Below, piece by piece: positions 160-63,449 of a DNA stretch of 64,000 bases. Under the pieces are notes generated by a model, which saw only the letters and a program-made list of their open reading frames with translations, did no database searches and was not told the origin of the DNA. The stretch's first letter is position 1, and each line of letters starts with the position of its first letter. A program made the position numbers and the translations under genes. Source of the stretch: Alphaproteobacteria bacterium (GTDB lineage: Bacteria > Pseudomonadota > Alphaproteobacteria > JAJTHO01 > CANGXP01); assembly GCA_947457935.1 (NCBI GenBank), contig CANGXP010000005.1:2511-66510 (forward strand), given 5' to 3'.

Positions 160-477
160 CTAATTCACAGCCTCCACAACAGCCGCAGGATTAGAGGCAA
201 TGGTTTTAAGGTACGCGATAGCATAAGAAGGCGGCGTGTTTTTGCCCTGTTCCCATGAGCGTAATGTTTCAGTGTTGATTTTGAATTTTCCGCAAAAGTC
301 GTTTTGCGTCAGCCCGAGTTTCTTGCGAACGGCTTTAATATCAATCTCATCCGCTGCATAATGCGTGATGCGGAAACCTTCCGTTTTGCCGTTGGCATAG
401 TCTAGCGTTTGCTGCAAGCCACGCAATAAGCTCTCTCCCAATGCAGAAGGTGCATCGTCAATGATATTTTTTGCCAT
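160..477 (-). CDS. XRE-family HTH antitoxin (HigA-like)
   Basis: 105-aa ORF. The C-terminal HTH segment (LGLTQNDFCGKFKINTETLRSWEQGKNTPP) resembles the HTH of the BrnA protein at 29430-29813. It overlaps the 3' end of the toxin fragment by 20 nt, with toxin-then-antitoxin order as in HigBA pairs. Confidence 0.6.
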   Translation of the reverse strand: MAKNIIDDAPSALGESLLRGLQQTLDYANGKTEGFRITHYAADEIDIKAVRKKLGLTQNDFCGKFKINTETLRSWEQGKNTPPSYAIAYLKTIASNPAAVVEAVN

Positions 478-933
478 GTTCTAAACTCCTTTTGATAGCC
501 TCTGCAAGCATTGCTGCAGCGCGTAAATCTCCTGCCGATAAGTCGTCTTTTTCATTCTTGCCATACGCCGTGATAAGCGTTAGCGGCAACCGTTCATCAT
601 AGTAAAAGTAGATAACCCTTGCGCCGCCACGTTTTCCCCGTTGCTTTGATTGCCAACGCATAGTCGTTTCAATTTAAAATTACCCATAGCCGAAAACGAG
701 TGCAGCGGCGCGAAGTGTACCTCTTCGTACATGAGAGACGCTAAAGGAAGTTTGCAGGCATGGGTAATTTTAAAGTGGAATAACTATAGCTTGCGTACAC
801 CGCCTGAACCCTTAATCACATCCCCCGCCAAAGGATTGACTGACAGAAACATCTTGAGGGCTTCCACTTGCTCTTCTGTAAACAGCTTTTCAGCTTGTTT
901 GGTAAATTCTGGTGTTTCGGCAACGGTAAGCAT
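458..933 (-). pseudogene. RelE/HigB-family toxin gene interrupted by a 129-bp palindromic element
   Basis: The minus-strand N-terminal fragment (933 down to about 787) reads MLTVAETPEFTKQAEKLFTEEQVEALKMFLSVNPLAGDVIKGSGGVRKL and stops at a TAG created at the element junction. The C-terminal fragment (661-458) reads MRWQSKQRGKRGGARVIYFYYDERLPLTLITAYGKNEKDDLS, a typical RelE/HigB core. Removing the element and one TA restores an in-frame ...GGVRKLRWQSK... ORF. Confidence 0.6.
659..788 (+). mobile_element. Palindromic MITE-like element copy 1 (about 129 bp, TA target)
   Basis: Termini are TAGTCGTTTCAATTTAAAATTACCC ... GGGTAATTTTAAAGTGGAATAACTA, flanked by CA/TA. The copy is homologous over its full length to the copies at 3410, 7883 and 63319. 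Confidence 0.6.
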
Positions 934-1612: not shown

Positions 1613-3418
1613 TCAAGCCGCCAACCCTTCCCCCCAGCCCCGTGTCTCCGCCGTGGGCAGCATCACATCCTCAATAAACACTTGCGGCGTGGGGGTTTTG
1701 CCCCATGTATCCAGTTTTAACGTGCCCGCAATATGCAACGGCTTACCTTGGTTGGAGAGCAACACCTGCCCGATATTCTGGTCAAGGGCACGGAATGCCA
1801 TCGCTTTCACGGTAAAAGCGCGGTCTTTATCTCCCAACACACACCGCACATGATTATCCCCCACAACGGCGGCTTGGCGAATAATCACCTCAGGCAACAA
1901 AAACCGTGGTTGCGGATTGCCCGCCCCAAACGGCGCGAGTTGCTCTAATTTTGTGATAAAGTCCGCTGTGATGCCCTTAATGTGCATTGTGCCATCTAAA
2001 TGCAACAGCGGCGTAATATTCTGTGCAGCAATAAGGCGTTGCACCTGTTCTTCTAAGTAGTCTGTGAAGACAGGCAGCATGCTTGCATGGATACTAAACC
2101 CCGCCGCCATTTCATGCCCACCACCAGCCAACAACATCTCTTGTTGCCGTGCGGCAATCACTAAATTGCCCAAATGCACGCCACTCACCGAACGACATGA
2201 TGCCTTACCAATCCCTTTTTCATCAAAGGCTATTACGCAGGTTGGCAGGTGATACCTTTCTTTAAGACGTCCCGCTACAATGCCAATCACCCCTGCGTGC
2301 CACCCCTGCCCTGACACAATCAACACACTTCTTTTACTCGCCGCGTCATTGGTAAGAGCCTCTGCCTGCACCAATGCTTCACTTAAAACAGTATATTCAA
2401 TGGCTTTTCGCTCTTTGTTAAACTCTTCTAACAGCGTTGCAATGTGCTGTGCTTCGGCAGGATTTTTCGTACTCAGCAATTTTGCGCCTAAATCCGATTG
2501 CCCCACACGCCCCCCTGCATTGATCCGTGGACCCAACACAAACCCTAAATGATACGCCGTCGGCACTTCCTTAACACCCGCCGTATCCATCAGCGTTTTC
2601 AGCCCCAAATTTTGCCGATTTGCCATCACTTTTAAGCCTTGCGCCACAAAAGCTCGATTCAGCGTGGTCAGACTCACCACGTCACACACGGTGCCTAGCG
2701 CCACAATATCGAGTAAATTAAGCAAGTTAGGCTTTTTTGTTTGTGTAAAAAACCCCCGCGCTTCCAAAATGGTGTTGGTCGCAATCAGCAACAAAAACAC
2801 CACGCCCACGGCCGCTAAGTGCTTATAATCACTGTCTTCATCAAACCGATTCGGGTTCACCACCGCCACCGCCGCTGGCATGGTTAACTCACTCGCATGG
2901 TGATCAATCACCAGCACTTCTAACCCACAGTTTTTGGCGGCCTCAAGGGGGGCAAATGCCGTGGTGCCACAATCAACGGTAATCACCAAGTCAACGCCTT
3001 CTGCCCGCAGCTTTTCTAGTGCAGGCGCATTAGGACCATACCCCTCTTTCATGCGGTCAGGCACATACAATTGAATGACTTGCCCTAACATCTGAAAGTA
3101 ATTTAATAGCAATGCAGAAGAAGTTGCGCCATCTACATCATAATCACCCCACACTGCCACCGATTGCTTGCTGATAATTGCTTCAGCTAATCTATTCGCT
3201 GCCGCTTGCATATCTTTGAGATGCAATGGATTTGGCAGCGCATCTTTGAGACGCGGCTCTAAAAACCCCTCCGCCTCTTCTAAGCCAATATTGCGCGCCG
3301 CGAGCAGCTGCCCCAAAACCACAGGCAGTTGAAATCGTTGACTCAACGCTAACGCAAGGCGTTCATCATGCGGTTTAAAGCGCCACGTTCTAGCAGAGGC
3401 TGAAAGCATTATAATCAT
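1613..3418 (-). CDS. recJ: Single-stranded-DNA-specific exonuclease RecJ
   Basis: 601-aa protein with DHH and DHHA1 family sequence features (VITVDCGTTA, DHH). The alternative start at 3409 (MLSAS...) is more likely. Either start lies inside element copy 2. Confidence 0.9.
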   Translation of the reverse strand: MIIMLSASARTWRFKPHDERLALALSQRFQLPVVLGQLLAARNIGLEEAEGFLEPRLKDALPNPLHLKDMQAAANRLAEAIISKQSVAVWGDYDVDGATSSALLLNYFQMLGQVIQLYVPDRMKEGYGPNAPALEKLRAEGVDLVITVDCGTTAFAPLEAAKNCGLEVLVIDHHASELTMPAAVAVVNPNRFDEDSDYKHLAAVGVVFLLLIATNTILEARGFFTQTKKPNLLNLLDIVALGTVCDVVSLTTLNRAFVAQGLKVMANRQNLGLKTLMDTAGVKEVPTAYHLGFVLGPRINAGGRVGQSDLGAKLLSTKNPAEAQHIATLLEEFNKERKAIEYTVLSEALVQAEALTNDAASKRSVLIVSGQGWHAGVIGIVAGRLKERYHLPTCVIAFDEKGIGKASCRSVSGVHLGNLVIAARQQEMLLAGGGHEMAAGFSIHASMLPVFTDYLEEQVQRLIAAQNITPLLHLDGTMHIKGITADFITKLEQLAPFGAGNPQPRFLLPEVIIRQAAVVGDNHVRCVLGDKDRAFTVKAMAFRALDQNIGQVLLSNQGKPLHIAGTLKLDTWGKTPTPQVFIEDVMLPTAETRGWGEGLAA

Positions 3419-3539
3419 TCCACTTTAAAATTACCCCTGCCTGCAAACTTCCTTTAGCGTCTCTTCTGTACGAATAGGTACATTTCGCGCCGCTGCAGTC
3501 GTTTTCGGCTATGGGTAATTTCAAATTGAAACGACTATA
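3410..3539 (-). mobile_element. Palindromic MITE-like element copy 2
   Basis: TA-TAATCATTCCACTTTAAAATTACCC ... GGGTAATTTCAAATTGAAACGACTA-TA. The core is reverse-complemented relative to copy 1. It overlaps the 5' end and start codon of recJ. Confidence 0.6.
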
Positions 3540-7203: not shown

Positions 7204-7887
7204 ATGAACGACATCCTCAAAGAAGCCCAATCAGACCTCACCCAAGAAAAACTGCGCGTTTTCTTCCAAAAACACACGGGCAAATTGGTAGGCGGTGTGG
7301 TGGTAGTATTGCTCTCAGCGGGGGCAGCAAGCTGGATGCACAGCGAAAAACAAGAAAAACTCGAAGCCCTCAATGTGCAATATCATGCCGCCGAAAAATT
7401 CATTGCGGAAAGCAGCCTTGCCGAAGCCAGCAACACGCTGGATGCACTGGCAGATCAAGAAGGAAAACACGGTTTTGGTACACTCGCTCGTTTCCGCAAG
7501 GCATCCTTATTGCTGATACAAAACAGAGAAGAAGAAGCGCAAAAAATTTACGCAAAACTCGCTAAAGACGGCAGCATTTCCCCTTCTTTACGCGAGTACG
7601 CGAGTATTTTATACGCCTACGGTGCGCTGAACACACAAACGGGCATTGATGCCGATACAACCAAACAACTCACAAAAATCATTGACGATAAAGGGGCGTG
7701 GAAATTTGCCGCGCGTGAGATTCTCGCGCTGCAAAGTCTGCAAGACCTGAAGAAAATCTCTAACCCTGATGAAAAGCGCGTTCAAGAAACTGCGGAGAAA
7801 TTCCAAAGTCTCACAGAAGAAGCCGAAATCCCCAGTGCAATGAAACAACGCGCCGAAGCCATCCTCACTGTGCTCCCCCAACTATAG
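7204..7887 (+). CDS. YfgM-like membrane-anchored TPR protein (UPF0070)
   Basis: N-terminal TM helix followed by an alpha-helical TPR-like body. Conserved position upstream of bamB. Its TAG stop lies inside the terminus of element copy 3. Confidence 0.6.
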   Translation: MNDILKEAQSDLTQEKLRVFFQKHTGKLVGGVVVVLLSAGAASWMHSEKQEKLEALNVQYHAAEKFIAESSLAEASNTLDALADQEGKHGFGTLARFRKASLLLIQNREEEAQKIYAKLAKDGSISPSLREYASILYAYGALNTQTGIDADTTKQLTKIIDDKGAWKFAAREILALQSLQDLKKISNPDEKRVQETAEKFQSLTEEAEIPSAMKQRAEAILTVLPQL

Positions 7888-8011
7888 TCATTCCACTTTA
7901 AAATTCCTCATGCCTGCAAACTTTCCTTAGCGTCCCTCATGTACAAAAGGTACACTTCGTGCCGCTGCGGTCGCTTTCGGCTACGGGGAATTTTAAATTG
8001 AAACGACTATA
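7883..8011 (-). mobile_element. Palindromic MITE-like element copy 3
   Basis: TA-TAGTCATTCCACTTTAAAATTCC ... GGAATTTTAAATTGAAACGACTA-TA with clean TA duplication. It fills the whole yfgM-bamB intergenic region. Confidence 0.65.
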
Positions 8012-8034
8012 CAACCAAAAAATAAGGGGCTTTT

Positions 8035-9348
8035 ATGAAAAACTCTCTCCGCAAAACACTGCTGTTGTCTACTTGCCTTGTCACGCTTGCAGGATGCAGC
8101 CTGTTTGAAGAAGCGCCCCAACCCGTGATTGACAAAAGCAAGCGTCTCTCTGTGTTACAGCTAGAGAAAAAACTCACGCCCGAAACCAATACGCCCGTGG
8201 TGTTGCCTGAAGCCATCACCAATGATGCATGGCTGCAAGCAGGCGGCAATGCCACCCATGCCTTCCCGCCCCTTGCACTCGGCAAAACGCTGGAACAAAG
8301 ATGGCGCACCAATGTTGGCACGTCCTCTGAAGAAGAGGGGTTCACGCCCATCTCCCCCCTCATCACGGGCAACAAACTCATTGCGCTTGATGCACAAGGC
8401 ATGCTTACCGCGCTTAATACTCAAGATGGCGAAAAGCTTTGGGAAATAGGGGTTGCACCCGAAAAAGAAGAAGTAACGCTGATGCGCGGCGGCATGGCGG
8501 TCAGCGGCGGTGTTATTTATATTGCCTCAGGCTATGCAGAACTCATCGCGGTGGAAGCAGAAGCGGGGAAAGTGTTGTGGCGTGTGCCTCTGCCCGCCCC
8601 TGTTCACGCCGCCCCCATCATTGAAGGCAATAAATTATTCCTCATCACTGTTGATAATGAAATGTATGCCTACGGGCTTCCTGCTGGCAATTTGCTGTGG
8701 AATAGCGCGGGCTTAACCGAGAATGCCGCCATTGCAGGTACAGGCAGTGTTGCTGCCACGAGCGATATTGTTGTCGTCCCCTATTCTTCAGGCGAACTTT
8801 CTGCTGTGCTGAATGGAAACGGCCGTGTTGTGTGGGAGCAATCGCTTGTTGCCGCCAGCCGCCTTTCTGCCGCTGGCTCTTTGTCTTCCATTGTTGGCCG
8901 CCCGATTATTCACAACGGCAAAGTTTTCGCTGTGGGGCATGGCGGGCGCACCATCGCGGTGGATGCACGCTCTGGCAAACGCCTGTGGAGCAAAGACATC
9001 GGCAGCATTCGCAGTCCTTGGCTTGCAGGAGATTTTCTCTACGTTATCACCAACGACAACCAACTCGTTTGCTTGAATACAGAGGGCGGCATTCGCTGGG
9101 TCACACAACTGCAACGCTATGAAGACAGCGACGAAAAAGACAACCCTATCCTCTGGAGTAGCCCGATTATCGGCGGCAACCGCTTATTACTAACCAACTC
9201 AATGGGGCAACTAGTCAGTGTATCCCCCACCACAGGGGCAATCATAGCAACCGAAGACCTCCCCGCACCCACCATCGCCGATCCTGTTATTGCGCGGGGC
9301 ACGCTTTATCTTCTTACTAATGAGGGGGATGTTGTCGCGATGCGATAG
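8035..9348 (+). CDS. bamB: Outer membrane protein assembly factor BamB (PQQ-repeat beta-propeller lipoprotein)
   Basis: Lipoprotein signal peptide with LAGC lipobox. Repeated PQQ-like blades (NGKLIALDAQGMLTALNTQDGEKLW and similar). Confidence 0.85.
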   Translation: MKNSLRKTLLLSTCLVTLAGCSLFEEAPQPVIDKSKRLSVLQLEKKLTPETNTPVVLPEAITNDAWLQAGGNATHAFPPLALGKTLEQRWRTNVGTSSEEEGFTPISPLITGNKLIALDAQGMLTALNTQDGEKLWEIGVAPEKEEVTLMRGGMAVSGGVIYIASGYAELIAVEAEAGKVLWRVPLPAPVHAAPIIEGNKLFLITVDNEMYAYGLPAGNLLWNSAGLTENAAIAGTGSVAATSDIVVVPYSSGELSAVLNGNGRVVWEQSLVAASRLSAAGSLSSIVGRPIIHNGKVFAVGHGGRTIAVDARSGKRLWSKDIGSIRSPWLAGDFLYVITNDNQLVCLNTEGGIRWVTQLQRYEDSDEKDNPILWSSPIIGGNRLLLTNSMGQLVSVSPTTGAIIATEDLPAPTIADPVIARGTLYLLTNEGDVVAMR

Positions 9349-35315: not shown

Positions 35316-35586
35316 TATAGGTCTTTACCGATACAAAAAATGTAGCCACACCTGCCGTTGAGTGATTGATTCCACAGACCCTATATAATAGGTGGGTGCC
35401 AGATGATAAAAACCACGGTTCTTACCAGCGCCAGATCCCTGTGAAATCGTATGGACCGAGGAATGACAAAACCCTATCGCACAGGGCAGCTACATCAGAC
35501 ACTATACAACAAACCGCCGCCCAATACAACTTTGCATTAGGGCTGTTTTTCTGCTATGGTTAATGTTCACATTAGGGAGAAACGTC

Positions 35587-42327: not shown

Positions 42328-43773
42328 ATGATGCACTATACTTTACTATTGGGAAAAAACATTCAACCATGGCAGTGCCATACAGTTGCGCATGCACGCG
42401 ATATTTATAACAGCATTTATAACACCCCCACGCCAAACATTGCGCCCCCAAAATGGCAAGCGATGCTTGAGAATACTTTATTTAAATATCGTGCTCCACA
42501 CATTCCCTCTATTCCCCTTAAAAAGACAGCCATACCGCCGCAACAGAGCGGTGTTATTGATTTAACAGGCATCTCCACAACGTTACCGCACAAAAACACC
42601 CTGTTGAAGCCATTTTTTAATGGATCGTTTGATGCACAAGCGCTGCACACCAGCCTTGTGCAAGGCATAGCGCCCACTATTGGCTGGGCAATGCGTGATG
42701 CGACCGATAGCCCGTGGTATGTGCTTATTGAAGCGGACATTGCAGTAAGAGAACCCTTGGCATTGCAACCCGCACTCTCGCTCTGCGGGGAACGCTTGCA
42801 ACAGCTGTTCACACGCGGGATACAGAAGCTAAATACAGGCTATTTGCCCACCATCCCTTTCATACCGCAAGAACAGCCTCTATCTTTTTCCTACACAACG
42901 CTCGCGCTCAAACAGCTTAAACTCAAACTGCCGCATATCGTGCACAAACTTTTTTTGCGGAGAAACCATTGGGAAATGGCAATTGCGCGGCGCGATGCAA
43001 TCACGCCTGATGCATGGCAACGTCTGATTACTCCCCGTATGCACTTTGAAGCAGATCCGTTTTTGTGGGAAGAAAACGGCAAGACGTATCTTTTTTATGA
43101 ACAAGCGGTGTACCCATGCGGCAAAGGGCGCATCGCCTATCGTGTGGTTGCCGATGATGGCACGGCAAGCGAACCCGTGGTCGCCTTAGAACGCCCCTAT
43201 CACTTTTCTTATCCGCATTTATTTCGCTATAATGATACAACCCATATACTTCCTGAAAGCCGCGCTGGTAGACTAGAAATCTATAAAAGTGTTGTATTTC
43301 CTGATCATTGGGAATTAGCACACACCTTTTTTGAAGGCGTGAATGCGGCTGATTCTACCCTACATTACGATGGGCAACGCTGGTGGTTGTTTACCAACAT
43401 TGCGACAGGAGATGTCCCTAATTGGGACGAGCTGTTTTTATTTTATGCTGATAGCCCGTTTGGCGAGTGGACACCCCATCCGCAAAATCCCATCAAAGCC
43501 AGCGCAGCGGGGGCACGCATGGCGGGAAATTTGTTTAAGCAAAACGGCAACCTCATCCGCGTTGGACAAGATTGTCGTGGGGATTATGGTTTACAAGTGT
43601 TATTTTTTCGGGTGGATACCCTCACCCCTGAACAGTATGCAGAAACAGCTATCCCCTGCCCTATTACGCTGCCTAAAACGTACAAGATGGATGGCAAGAA
43701 GTTCCGCTGGCACAGCTATAGCCAATCGTCAAAATTTGTGGCAATTGATTATAATCGGGTGAAAAGGCGGTGA
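42328..43773 (+). CDS. hypothetical protein with C-terminal five-bladed beta-propeller glycoside-hydrolase-like domain
   Basis: The C-terminal ~250 aa (FEADPFLWEENGKTYLFYEQ ... RWWLFTNIATG ... NLIRVGQDCRGDYG) resemble GH43/GH130-type propellers. The N-terminal ~230 aa have no recognisable family. Confidence 0.4.
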   Translation: MMHYTLLLGKNIQPWQCHTVAHARDIYNSIYNTPTPNIAPPKWQAMLENTLFKYRAPHIPSIPLKKTAIPPQQSGVIDLTGISTTLPHKNTLLKPFFNGSFDAQALHTSLVQGIAPTIGWAMRDATDSPWYVLIEADIAVREPLALQPALSLCGERLQQLFTRGIQKLNTGYLPTIPFIPQEQPLSFSYTTLALKQLKLKLPHIVHKLFLRRNHWEMAIARRDAITPDAWQRLITPRMHFEADPFLWEENGKTYLFYEQAVYPCGKGRIAYRVVADDGTASEPVVALERPYHFSYPHLFRYNDTTHILPESRAGRLEIYKSVVFPDHWELAHTFFEGVNAADSTLHYDGQRWWLFTNIATGDVPNWDELFLFYADSPFGEWTPHPQNPIKASAAGARMAGNLFKQNGNLIRVGQDCRGDYGLQVLFFRVDTLTPEQYAETAIPCPITLPKTYKMDGKKFRWHSYSQSSKFVAIDYNRVKRR

Positions 43774-43777
43774 GGAA

Positions 43778-43812
43778 TATAGTCATTCCACTTTTAAATT
43801 GAAATGACTATA
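43778..43812. mobile_element. Core-less mini copy of the palindromic element (termini only)
   Basis: TA-TAGTCATTCCACTTTTAAATTGAAATGACTA-TA. The two terminal repeats are joined directly, with no core and intact TA flanks. Confidence 0.55.
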
Positions 43813-43822
43813 CTTGAAAAAC

Positions 43823-44365
43823 CTACAACTTCTTAAACGTAATCACCAATTCGCCCACCGTGATGTTATATTTCTTCATGCTGGTGCGGTTAATGAGGGT
43901 TTTTTCATCCATTAAGAATAGCCAGTCATCCATGGTGAGGCGGATTGTTTCGCCGCTTGCGCGTTTTGCGTCCAGAACATAACTCATGTTCACTGCATTG
44001 CCGTCTTGCGTGCCCTTGGCAATACCCACCACATCATGCGCGGTTGCAGTGAAAGTGCGATCATCTTGGAAGGTAATTGTCCACGTGCGTTGGTCTTTGC
44101 GGCCATCACTATACACAAAATCTTCTTTAAGCGTGCCAACATTGCCCTGCCAGCTACCCACCATTTTCACGGTGAAAAACAAGTCTGCCTTGCCGCTGTA
44201 ATCAAATAAAATACCGCTGGCTTCCAAGGGACCATTAAGATAATCGCGAATGTCCAATTTTGGCGTGTTTGCCGCATAATCCTTGGTGGTCATGGCGGTG
44301 GAACACCCCCCTAGTGTCAGCATTAAACCGCTGGCAATGGCGGCGATTTTTTTTCTTGTACTCAT
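43823..44365 (-). CDS. DUF3833-family lipoprotein
   Basis: Lipobox LTLGGCS. Family typical of the cyclopropane-fatty-acid-synthase-like cluster. Confidence 0.6.
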   Translation of the reverse strand: MSTRKKIAAIASGLMLTLGGCSTAMTTKDYAANTPKLDIRDYLNGPLEASGILFDYSGKADLFFTVKMVGSWQGNVGTLKEDFVYSDGRKDQRTWTITFQDDRTFTATAHDVVGIAKGTQDGNAVNMSYVLDAKRASGETIRLTMDDWLFLMDEKTLINRTSMKKYNITVGELVITFKKL

Positions 44366-44425
44366 AAATTTGCTCCTTTCTGTTGTGGTTGCAGATGTGC
44401 GTTTCATCTTAAAACGAGAATAAAA

Positions 44426-63318: not shown

Positions 63319-63449
63319 TATAGTTATTCCAAAACAAAATTACCCGCTGGCGAAAACAACCGCAACCGAGCGAAAGTGTACATCTTAGTACATGAGCGAG
63401 GTTAAGGGAAGTTTGCAGTCGTGGGTAACTTTGTTTTGGAGTGACTATC
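63319..63449 (+). mobile_element. Palindromic MITE-like element copy 5 (divergent)
   Basis: TA-TAGTTATTCCAAAACAAAATTACCC ... GGGTAACTTTGTTTTGGAGTGACTA-TC. Core homologous to copy 1. It ends one base before the recA stop codon. Confidence 0.55.

Follow-up and report, generated by a model that had tools for sequence, protein, structure and literature searches.

Among described toxin-antitoxin systems, the HigB-2/HigA-2 pair of Vibrio cholerae (PDB 5JA8, 5JAA) is the nearest model for the locus reported here. Its toxin gene stands first and overlaps the antitoxin gene, and alanine substitution identified Arg51, Arg64, Tyr82 and Lys84 as active-site residues of the toxin, VcHigB2 (PMC5416850). 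Bacterial miniature inverted-repeat transposable elements (MITEs) have a working definition as non-coding elements of <200 bp with inverted termini, 5'-TA-3' ends and a stable stem-loop transcript (PMC2229807). ERIC/IRU and RUP (mobilised by IS630-Spn1), both covered in that review, and the Correia elements (NEMIS) of Neisseria are the described elements with which the one treated below is best compared.

Here, we analyzed 64,000 nucleotides of DNA from an uncultured alphaproteobacterium of lake water (contig CANGXP010000005.1, positions 2,511 to 66,510), hereafter called the window. It holds a chromosomal toxin-antitoxin operon of the HigB-2/HigA-2 type which, with high probability, was struck by a small non-autonomous inverted-repeat element, a MITE that we call copy 1. 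Like VcHigB-2, with which it aligns without a gap, the window toxin has the four catalytic residues and a Lys/Gly-rich beta2-beta3 loop; like HigA-2, the window antitoxin is about 105 amino acids (aa) long and has its helix-turn-helix (HTH) domain at the C terminus. Unlike the gene of VcHigB-2, however, the toxin gene of the window is interrupted, and unlike the Vibrio locus, which lies in a superintegron, the window locus is chromosomal and lies between recJ and a FAD oxidoreductase gene of an uncultured lake bacterium.

The split toxin gene and its intact alleles

All parts of the locus are read on the minus strand. The higB-2-like toxin gene begins with an open reading frame (ORF, 784-933) that reads MLTVAET...GSGGVRKL and then TAG; its 49 sense codons (MLTVAETPEFTKQAEKLFTEEQVEALKMFLSVNPLAGDVIKGSGGVRKL, 933-787) make up the N-terminal fragment. 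Copy 1 follows at 661-786 as 126 nt with imperfect terminal inverted repeats (TAGTTATTCCAC...GAAACGACTA). Written along the minus strand from 786 to 661 it is TAGTTATTCCACTTTAAAATTACCCA...TGGGTAATTTTAAATTGAAACGACTA, beginning with TAGTT and ending with GACTA. Its left flank dinucleotide, TA (787-788), is formed by the last two bases of the Leu49 codon CTA, and its right flank dinucleotide is TG (659-660). Codons 50-115 and the toxin stop codon occupy 458-658. They belong to a second ORF (458-661), M-RWQSKQRGKRGGARVIYFYYDE..., also written M-RWQSKQRGKRGGARVIYFYYDERLPL...HGKKYH, in which the 66 toxin codons are preceded by a start codon, and this ATG (659-661) consists of the last A of the element and the flanking TG. 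The higA-2-like antitoxin gene (160-477) overlaps the 3' end of the toxin gene by 20 nt, and its ribosome-binding site AAGGAG (486-491) lies within that 3' end, 8 nt upstream of the higA ATG.

A preliminary description of this DNA had read the locus as a RelE/HigB-type toxin gene split by an element that supplies an immediate TAG stop, and both statements proved right: the stop at 784-786 is the first triplet of the element. The same description gave fragments of 48 and 67 codons; the division into two parts stands, and the exact counts are 49 and 66. It also held that removing the element plus one TA restores the frame. In silico, excision of the 126 nt alone leaves a frameshift, the C-terminal fragment being 2 nt out of register with the N-terminal one, whereas excision of 128 nt, that is, the element with either flank dinucleotide, yields a continuous 115-aa ORF (...GSGGVRKLRWQSKQRGKRGG...). 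The wording "one TA" is inexact, since TG stands on the right of the element and the target was ancestrally CTG.

Besides excision, the description had proposed comparison with intact HigB homologues and a search for the uninterrupted locus in relatives, and both gave clear answers. In a protein database search, the joined protein matched P0001, an uninterrupted protein of 115 aa, with 99% identity over 100% of the length and across the junction, well outside what chance could produce. P0001 is encoded on 16 contigs from lake metagenomes in the gene order of the window: a deoxyhypusine-synthase-like gene, recJ, small ORFs, the toxin gene, the 105-aa HTH gene and a FAD/NAD oxidoreductase gene. 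When the window was aligned with eight of the contigs carrying the intact allele, the DNA was collinear save for a clean gap of 128 nt exactly at the element, with flank identities of about 92-96%. A third intact lineage, represented by contigs L017 and L018, is more distant (30/348 nt different) and lies in another genomic context. In all, intact alleles were seen on 16+3 contigs and the split allele on four, and the filled and empty sites amount to a presence/absence polymorphism between related genomes.

The family assignment rests on matches that span the junction. The joined protein scored 27.6 bits against the Pfam RelE family PF06296, marginally above the cut-off of 27, over residues 16-105 and thus across the junction, and PF06296 is precomputed on every listed homologue except one truncated 90-aa match. 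Against V. cholerae HigB-2 in the PDB the alignment was gap-free over residues 6-103, with an expect value (E) of 1e-21. Across 24 homologues, no variation was seen at G44, G45, R47, K48, R50, R63, Y81 or K83. With an alignment offset of one residue, R50, R63, Y81 and K83 here correspond to Arg51, Arg64, Tyr82 and Lys84 of VcHigB2, and from its family membership the reconstructed toxin is predicted to cleave mRNA in a ribosome-dependent manner and to be neutralised by the antitoxin. The toxin gene comes first and the HTH antitoxin gene overlaps it, in the window by 20 nt; all intact loci share this arrangement.

The element sits between L49 and R50, inside the invariant GG-V-RK-L-R block of the family, and the first residue after the break is a catalytic arginine; apart from the break, the toxin fragments show no damage. 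AlphaFold modelling of the intact homologue (predicted local distance difference test score 82.8) places this position in the middle of strand E46-52. The N-terminal fragment accordingly keeps beta1, alpha1, alpha2 and the first half of beta2 with none of the four catalytic residues, and the C-terminal fragment keeps R50, R63, Y81 and K83 without beta1, alpha1, alpha2 and half of beta2.

The preliminary description had called the insertion recent, and the substitution pattern agrees. Between the split and the intact toxin alleles we counted 13 synonymous differences and one non-synonymous difference, giving proportions of differing synonymous (pS) and non-synonymous (pN) sites of 0.16 and 0.004, and a pN/pS of 0.023. 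The antitoxin gene, with 11 synonymous differences and one non-synonymous difference in the same comparison, has a pN/pS of 0.027 and is indistinguishable from the split toxin gene. After polarising the substitutions with the outgroup lineage (L017/L018), we assigned five changes to the window's own branch, all of them synonymous and none an indel, and the sole amino-acid change to the other lineage. Under neutrality, the probability of five synonymous changes out of five is about (79/345)^5 = 6e-4. Purifying selection therefore acted on the toxin along practically all of the window branch, and the sequences support a young insertion.

Fate of the toxin and the antitoxin

With copy 1 in place, the TAG of the element halts translation after Leu49, and the remaining 66 codons are out of register by 2 nt and without a ribosome-binding site; inspection of the sequence 5' of the junction ATG found no Shine-Dalgarno sequence. 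Functional toxin is presumably no longer made.

The antitoxin gene had been described as intact, and it is. Its product has 105 aa, the length seen in relatives, differs from theirs by a single conservative L/M change, and scored 26.0 bits against Pfam HTH_3 (cut-off 23); AAGGAG is kept. Its similarity to V. cholerae HigA-2 is weak (E 1.7e-4 in the PDB search, over residues 43-99), and it is closer to Atu1735 of Agrobacterium (E 1e-9). Membership in the NadS family (NCBIfam NF041265) was considered and rejected, with 44 bits against a cut-off of 60. Profile and PDB searches with the N-terminal 40 residues found no match to a profile or solved structure; this part is presumably a disordered, toxin-neutralising segment.

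Upstream of the toxin gene, a promoter-like site (939-967) combines TTGACA, a 17-nt spacer and TACTAT, with 10/12 consensus matches, and is presumably the higBA promoter. The block TTGACAA-AGTCGTATTA-ATACTACT is conserved in three lineages in which the surrounding DNA differs. The -10 hexamer TACTAT ends only 5 nt before the ATG of higB (934-967), and the higBA mRNA would therefore be leaderless or nearly so. Overlapping the -10 and the spacer is the conserved, partly palindromic AGTCGTATTATATACTACT, self-complementary at 14/19 positions and a likely candidate for the operator bound by HigA.

A scan for promoters and terminators found no outward promoter in the element and no terminator-like site (U-tract) in or after it. 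The RNA of the element is predicted to fold into a hairpin of -40 kcal/mol (z = -5.2), which could be a target of RNase III by analogy with Correia and ERIC elements. The native promoter would transcribe through the element, and higA would be translated from its own AAGGAG. Given that this site and TTGACA-17-TACTAT are both preserved and that the element lacks a terminator-like U-tract, higA is probably still transcribed and made, as an orphan antitoxin and autorepressor encoded on a hairpin-bearing transcript.

Beyond the promoter, the DNA between recJ and higBA (961-1612) is not homologous to the corresponding segment of the sister lineage (L001, 4079-4945). The window segment, of about 630 nt, has one plus-strand ORF of 193 aa without a Pfam match; the segment of L001, of about 870 nt, has genes of 158 aa and 67 aa on the higB strand. 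The segment beside the toxin-antitoxin locus is a replaced cassette.

We weighed other explanations of the split locus. The disruption might be the selected state, with toxin loss favoured, the antitoxin kept as a regulator or anti-addiction (anti-toxin immunity) factor, and the allele spreading as a result. The established view holds toxin-first decay to be the only viable loss route for toxin-antitoxin pairs, the split allele occurs on four contigs, and no damage is seen in the antitoxin gene, its ribosome-binding site or the promoter. However, the insertion is too young for the retention of higA to reveal selection, and intact alleles turn up more widely (16+3 contigs). We regard selection as an unlikely explanation, with some chance of being right.

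Continued production of toxin, whether by removal of the element from the RNA, by ribosome bypass or as a C-terminal mini-toxin checked by HigA, is very unlikely. Bypass is invited by a stop directly after the take-off codon CUA, a strong hairpin next to it and a second CUA at the far end of the element, but a ribosome landing on the distal CUA would resume in the wrong frame (TGC GTT...) and meet a stop after 26 codons. Removal at the RNA level would call for an intron or ribozyme, and the region gave no match to either in Rfam, even at E up to 1. For a mini-toxin speak the junction-made ATG and the presence of R50, R63, Y81 and K83 together in the C-terminal fragment; against it stand the missing Shine-Dalgarno sequence and a modelled fold deprived of beta1, alpha1, alpha2 and half of beta2, which would be unlikely to form.

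Slightly less credible still is an artefact of metagenome assembly, in which a repeat was mis-threaded into the contig. Repeats are a known cause of mis-joins, and both the data type and the repeated nature of the element would fit. Yet the split allele was found again in an independent MEGAHIT assembly (L009), with identical junctions and 100% identity across 3.9 kb, and four contigs have a record of the 49-aa product, so the allele is not an assembly accident. Its boundaries are also the exact termini of the element and its difference from the empty site is precisely 128 nt, unlike a mis-join. Finally, that the two ORFs are independent small genes and nothing was interrupted has practically no chance of being true: each has its own ATG and the 49-aa product is annotated as a gene in public assemblies, but an uninterrupted protein of 115 aa and 99% identity is encoded at the orthologous locus, the Pfam and HigB-2 alignments cross the junction without a gap, and the downstream ATG is built from a base of the element and bases of its flank.

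The preferred reading therefore remains the disruption of higB by a MITE, and several points weigh against it. The C-terminal fragment, with its four catalytic residues, follows an ATG created at the junction, and some residual expression is formally conceivable. Scans of genome, metagenome and viral contigs found no cognate transposase. The flanks of copy 1 (TA/TG) and the CTG target in both other lineages are a misfit with textbook TA duplication. Lastly, we infer rather than observe read-through into higA, the absence of Rho-dependent polarity and the stability of the antitoxin.

The element and its other copies

The window contains five copies of the element, where 0.01 would be expected for its terminal 21-mer. 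In copy 1 (661-786, minus strand) the inverted-repeat arms are 38 nt long and 79% complementary. Copy 2 (3412-3537, plus) abuts the recJ start codon, copy 3 (7885-8009, plus) trims a yfgM-like gene, copy 4 (43780-43810) is an internally deleted 31-bp remnant, and copy 5 (63321-63447, minus) is a diverged copy after recA. The termini follow the pattern TAGTC(A/G)TT(C/T)CA(C/A)TTTAAAATT. Further copies lie on the related contigs L001, L002, L004, L010 and L011, and the related contigs include a long variant of 148 nt. Among GTDB genomes, the only match was a Lake Mendota metagenome-assembled genome labelled 'Alphaproteobacteria bacterium', with one copy 94.6% identical to copy 1.

The element fits what PMC2229807 defines as a bacterial MITE and has inserted both within and between genes. 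It shares size, TA ends, a stem-loop and genic as well as intergenic insertion with ERIC/IRU and RUP; no sequence similarity to either was found, and no insertion sequence (IS) with matching ends was identified for it. No full-length IS with the termini of the element was found in the window or in the collections that could be scanned. A sequence scan of PLSDB plasmids found no match to the element; among viral contigs there was none for its core, and its terminus gave one chance match inside a phage gene. A string search of the literature with the element sequence returned chance primer matches only. Two scans of metagenome contigs returned no copy, though the JGI contigs that we obtained by protein look-up carry the element. 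Taken together, the element apparently represents an undescribed MITE family that is currently active in an uncultured freshwater lineage.

Two known kinds of sequence were considered for the element and rejected. An intron, ribozyme or known RNA family found no support in Rfam, with no match at the gathering score and none when E was relaxed to 1, and a reading of the element copies found none of the GANTC sites of Caulobacter CIR repeats. At the gathering score, the only Rfam family in the window is a 6S RNA gene (RF00013, 60.9 bits) at 35339-35495 on the minus strand.

The preliminary description had inferred from copy 1 that the element can inactivate genes, and copy 3 bears this out by trimming the 3' end of a second gene. 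Its first triplet, TAG, serves as the stop codon of the ORF 7204-7887, whose match to the TPR_21 domain is weak and below the cut-off and which is yfgM-like by its position upstream of bamB. Excision of copy 3 with one TA (from 7883-8038) extends this ORF by eight codons (QPKNKGLL) to a TGA that overlaps the ATG of bamB (PQQ_2, 8035-9348) as ATGA. Since this overlap is lost, copy 3 trimmed the end of the gene and broke a probable translational coupling.

Copy 2 (3407-3539 with flanks) reads ...GATTA-TA-ATG at the start of recJ. It lies directly against the ATG, and the ribosome-binding region of recJ is therefore element sequence. On L001 (2154-2298), a 145-nt copy of another subfamily sits in the opposite orientation 1 nt away from this site (...ACTA-TATG), which suggests either independent hits on one spot or an inversion with replacement.

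Copy 4, with flanks 43778-43812, reads TAGTCATTCCACTTTTAAATTGAAATGACTA and holds only the two termini with TA/TA flanks, between two convergent genes (42328-43773, 43823-44407). Its appearance is that of an internal deletion running from the TTTAAA block of one arm to that of the other. Copy 5 (63319-63449 with flanks), about 78% identical, lies 2 nt after the recA stop codon. Its arms share one substitution block, CCAAAACAAA instead of CCACTTTAAA / TCAATTTAAA, and the changes at its termini are therefore compensatory.

Other elements occur in the same genomes. Downstream of the oxidoreductase gene, L009 (5415-5560) carries a different MITE, TAATACCAAACCCC...GGGTTGGTAT, and at the same spot the sister lineage (L002, 3316-3467) carries the 148-nt variant of the present family. 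An element on L011 (975-1112) has other ends and the same core, GTGTACGAAGAGGTACAC. In these genomes, several MITE families thus have sites and core modules in common.

Correia-like termini and the junction of copy 1

We compared the termini of the element, anchored at their ends, with Correia repeat variants taken from PMC5039591 and PMC9778887. The right terminus, TAGTCGTTTCAATTTAAA, agrees with the Correia sequence TAGTGGATTAAATTTAAA at 15/18 bases (17/26). This match was reached in 0/200,000 shuffles, and in 62/200,000 when TAGT was held fixed. The left terminus agrees with the Correia repeat at 12/18 bases (14/26). The core behaves differently from the ends. Against four real Correia copies from a Neisseria gonorrhoeae chromosome filed in PLSDB, blastn returned short matches at chance level (E >= 0.58), which speaks against membership in the Correia family, and an apical GTAC-N5-7-GTAC mini-hairpin is all that the cores have in common.

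In build, the resemblance is broader. Correia elements of 105-108 or 153-157 nt and the present element of 126 or 148 nt both come in short and long variants; both have TA at the two ends (in most copies of the element), terminal TAGT and a long-hairpin transcript, and both are without a known cognate transposase. Unlike Correia elements, which belong to Neisseria, the present one apparently resides in a freshwater alphaproteobacterium. Judged by sequence comparison, it is Correia-like in architecture and termini and is not a member of the family. During these searches we noticed that the PLSDB entries NZ_CP119140.1 and NZ_CP119142.1 are 2.17-Mb N. gonorrhoeae chromosomes mislabelled as plasmids, and that replicons of Cupriavidus and Ralstonia also matched the Correia core (positions 27-79), with an identity of about 85%.

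TA stands on both sides in 5/8 insertions. The others are copy 1 (TA/TG), copy 5 (GA/TA) and the copy on L001 (CA/TA). For copy 1, the sister and outgroup lineages both have C-TG-C at the empty site (empty-site sequence AAGCTGCGTTGG), which makes TG the most parsimonious target. Duplicating TG in the classical 2-nt manner predicts TG/TG, and a TA target would need two extra substitutions in a very young insertion; simple TA duplication of the IS630/Tc1-mariner type is thus not predictive of copy 1. Two models may be considered instead. In the first, a mobile unit of 128 nt, ATAGT...ACTAT, would be placed between two bases with nothing duplicated; in the second, a 2-nt core would be exchanged, as in site-specific recombination. 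Either fits TA/TG, GA/TA and CA/TA without extra mutation, in three cases of which one has a known empty site. At the site of copy 5, the recA-ligase spacer of L011, L013 and L014 has diverged beyond base-level comparison.

We also considered a wider, unrecognised superfamily in which the element and the Correia elements of Neisseria may stand together, marked by TA-TAGT termini, a AATTTAAA block and an apical GTAC hairpin, in which the terminal A...T travels without duplication or a 2-nt core is exchanged. This is a speculative proposal, and it is a little less likely to hold than selection for toxin loss. If it were true, one would have to reconsider the IS630-like TA-duplication mechanism assumed for such elements, and with it how the long-missing Correia transposase is sought.

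At the level of the gene, the event is routine and of a known kind: a MITE disabled a type II toxin and left an orphan antitoxin. Toxins of toxin-antitoxin pairs are often disabled by mobile elements, and decay that starts with the toxin is what one expects. Its value lies in being a clean, datable example, with filled and empty alleles of one locus coexisting in lake populations, and in a genome in which copies of the element also reshape gene ends and 5' regions (yfgM-like/bamB, recJ). Only two features go beyond the routine, the termini with their likeness to Correia repeats and the non-canonical TA/TG junction, and they are small leads on how MITEs without a transposase move.

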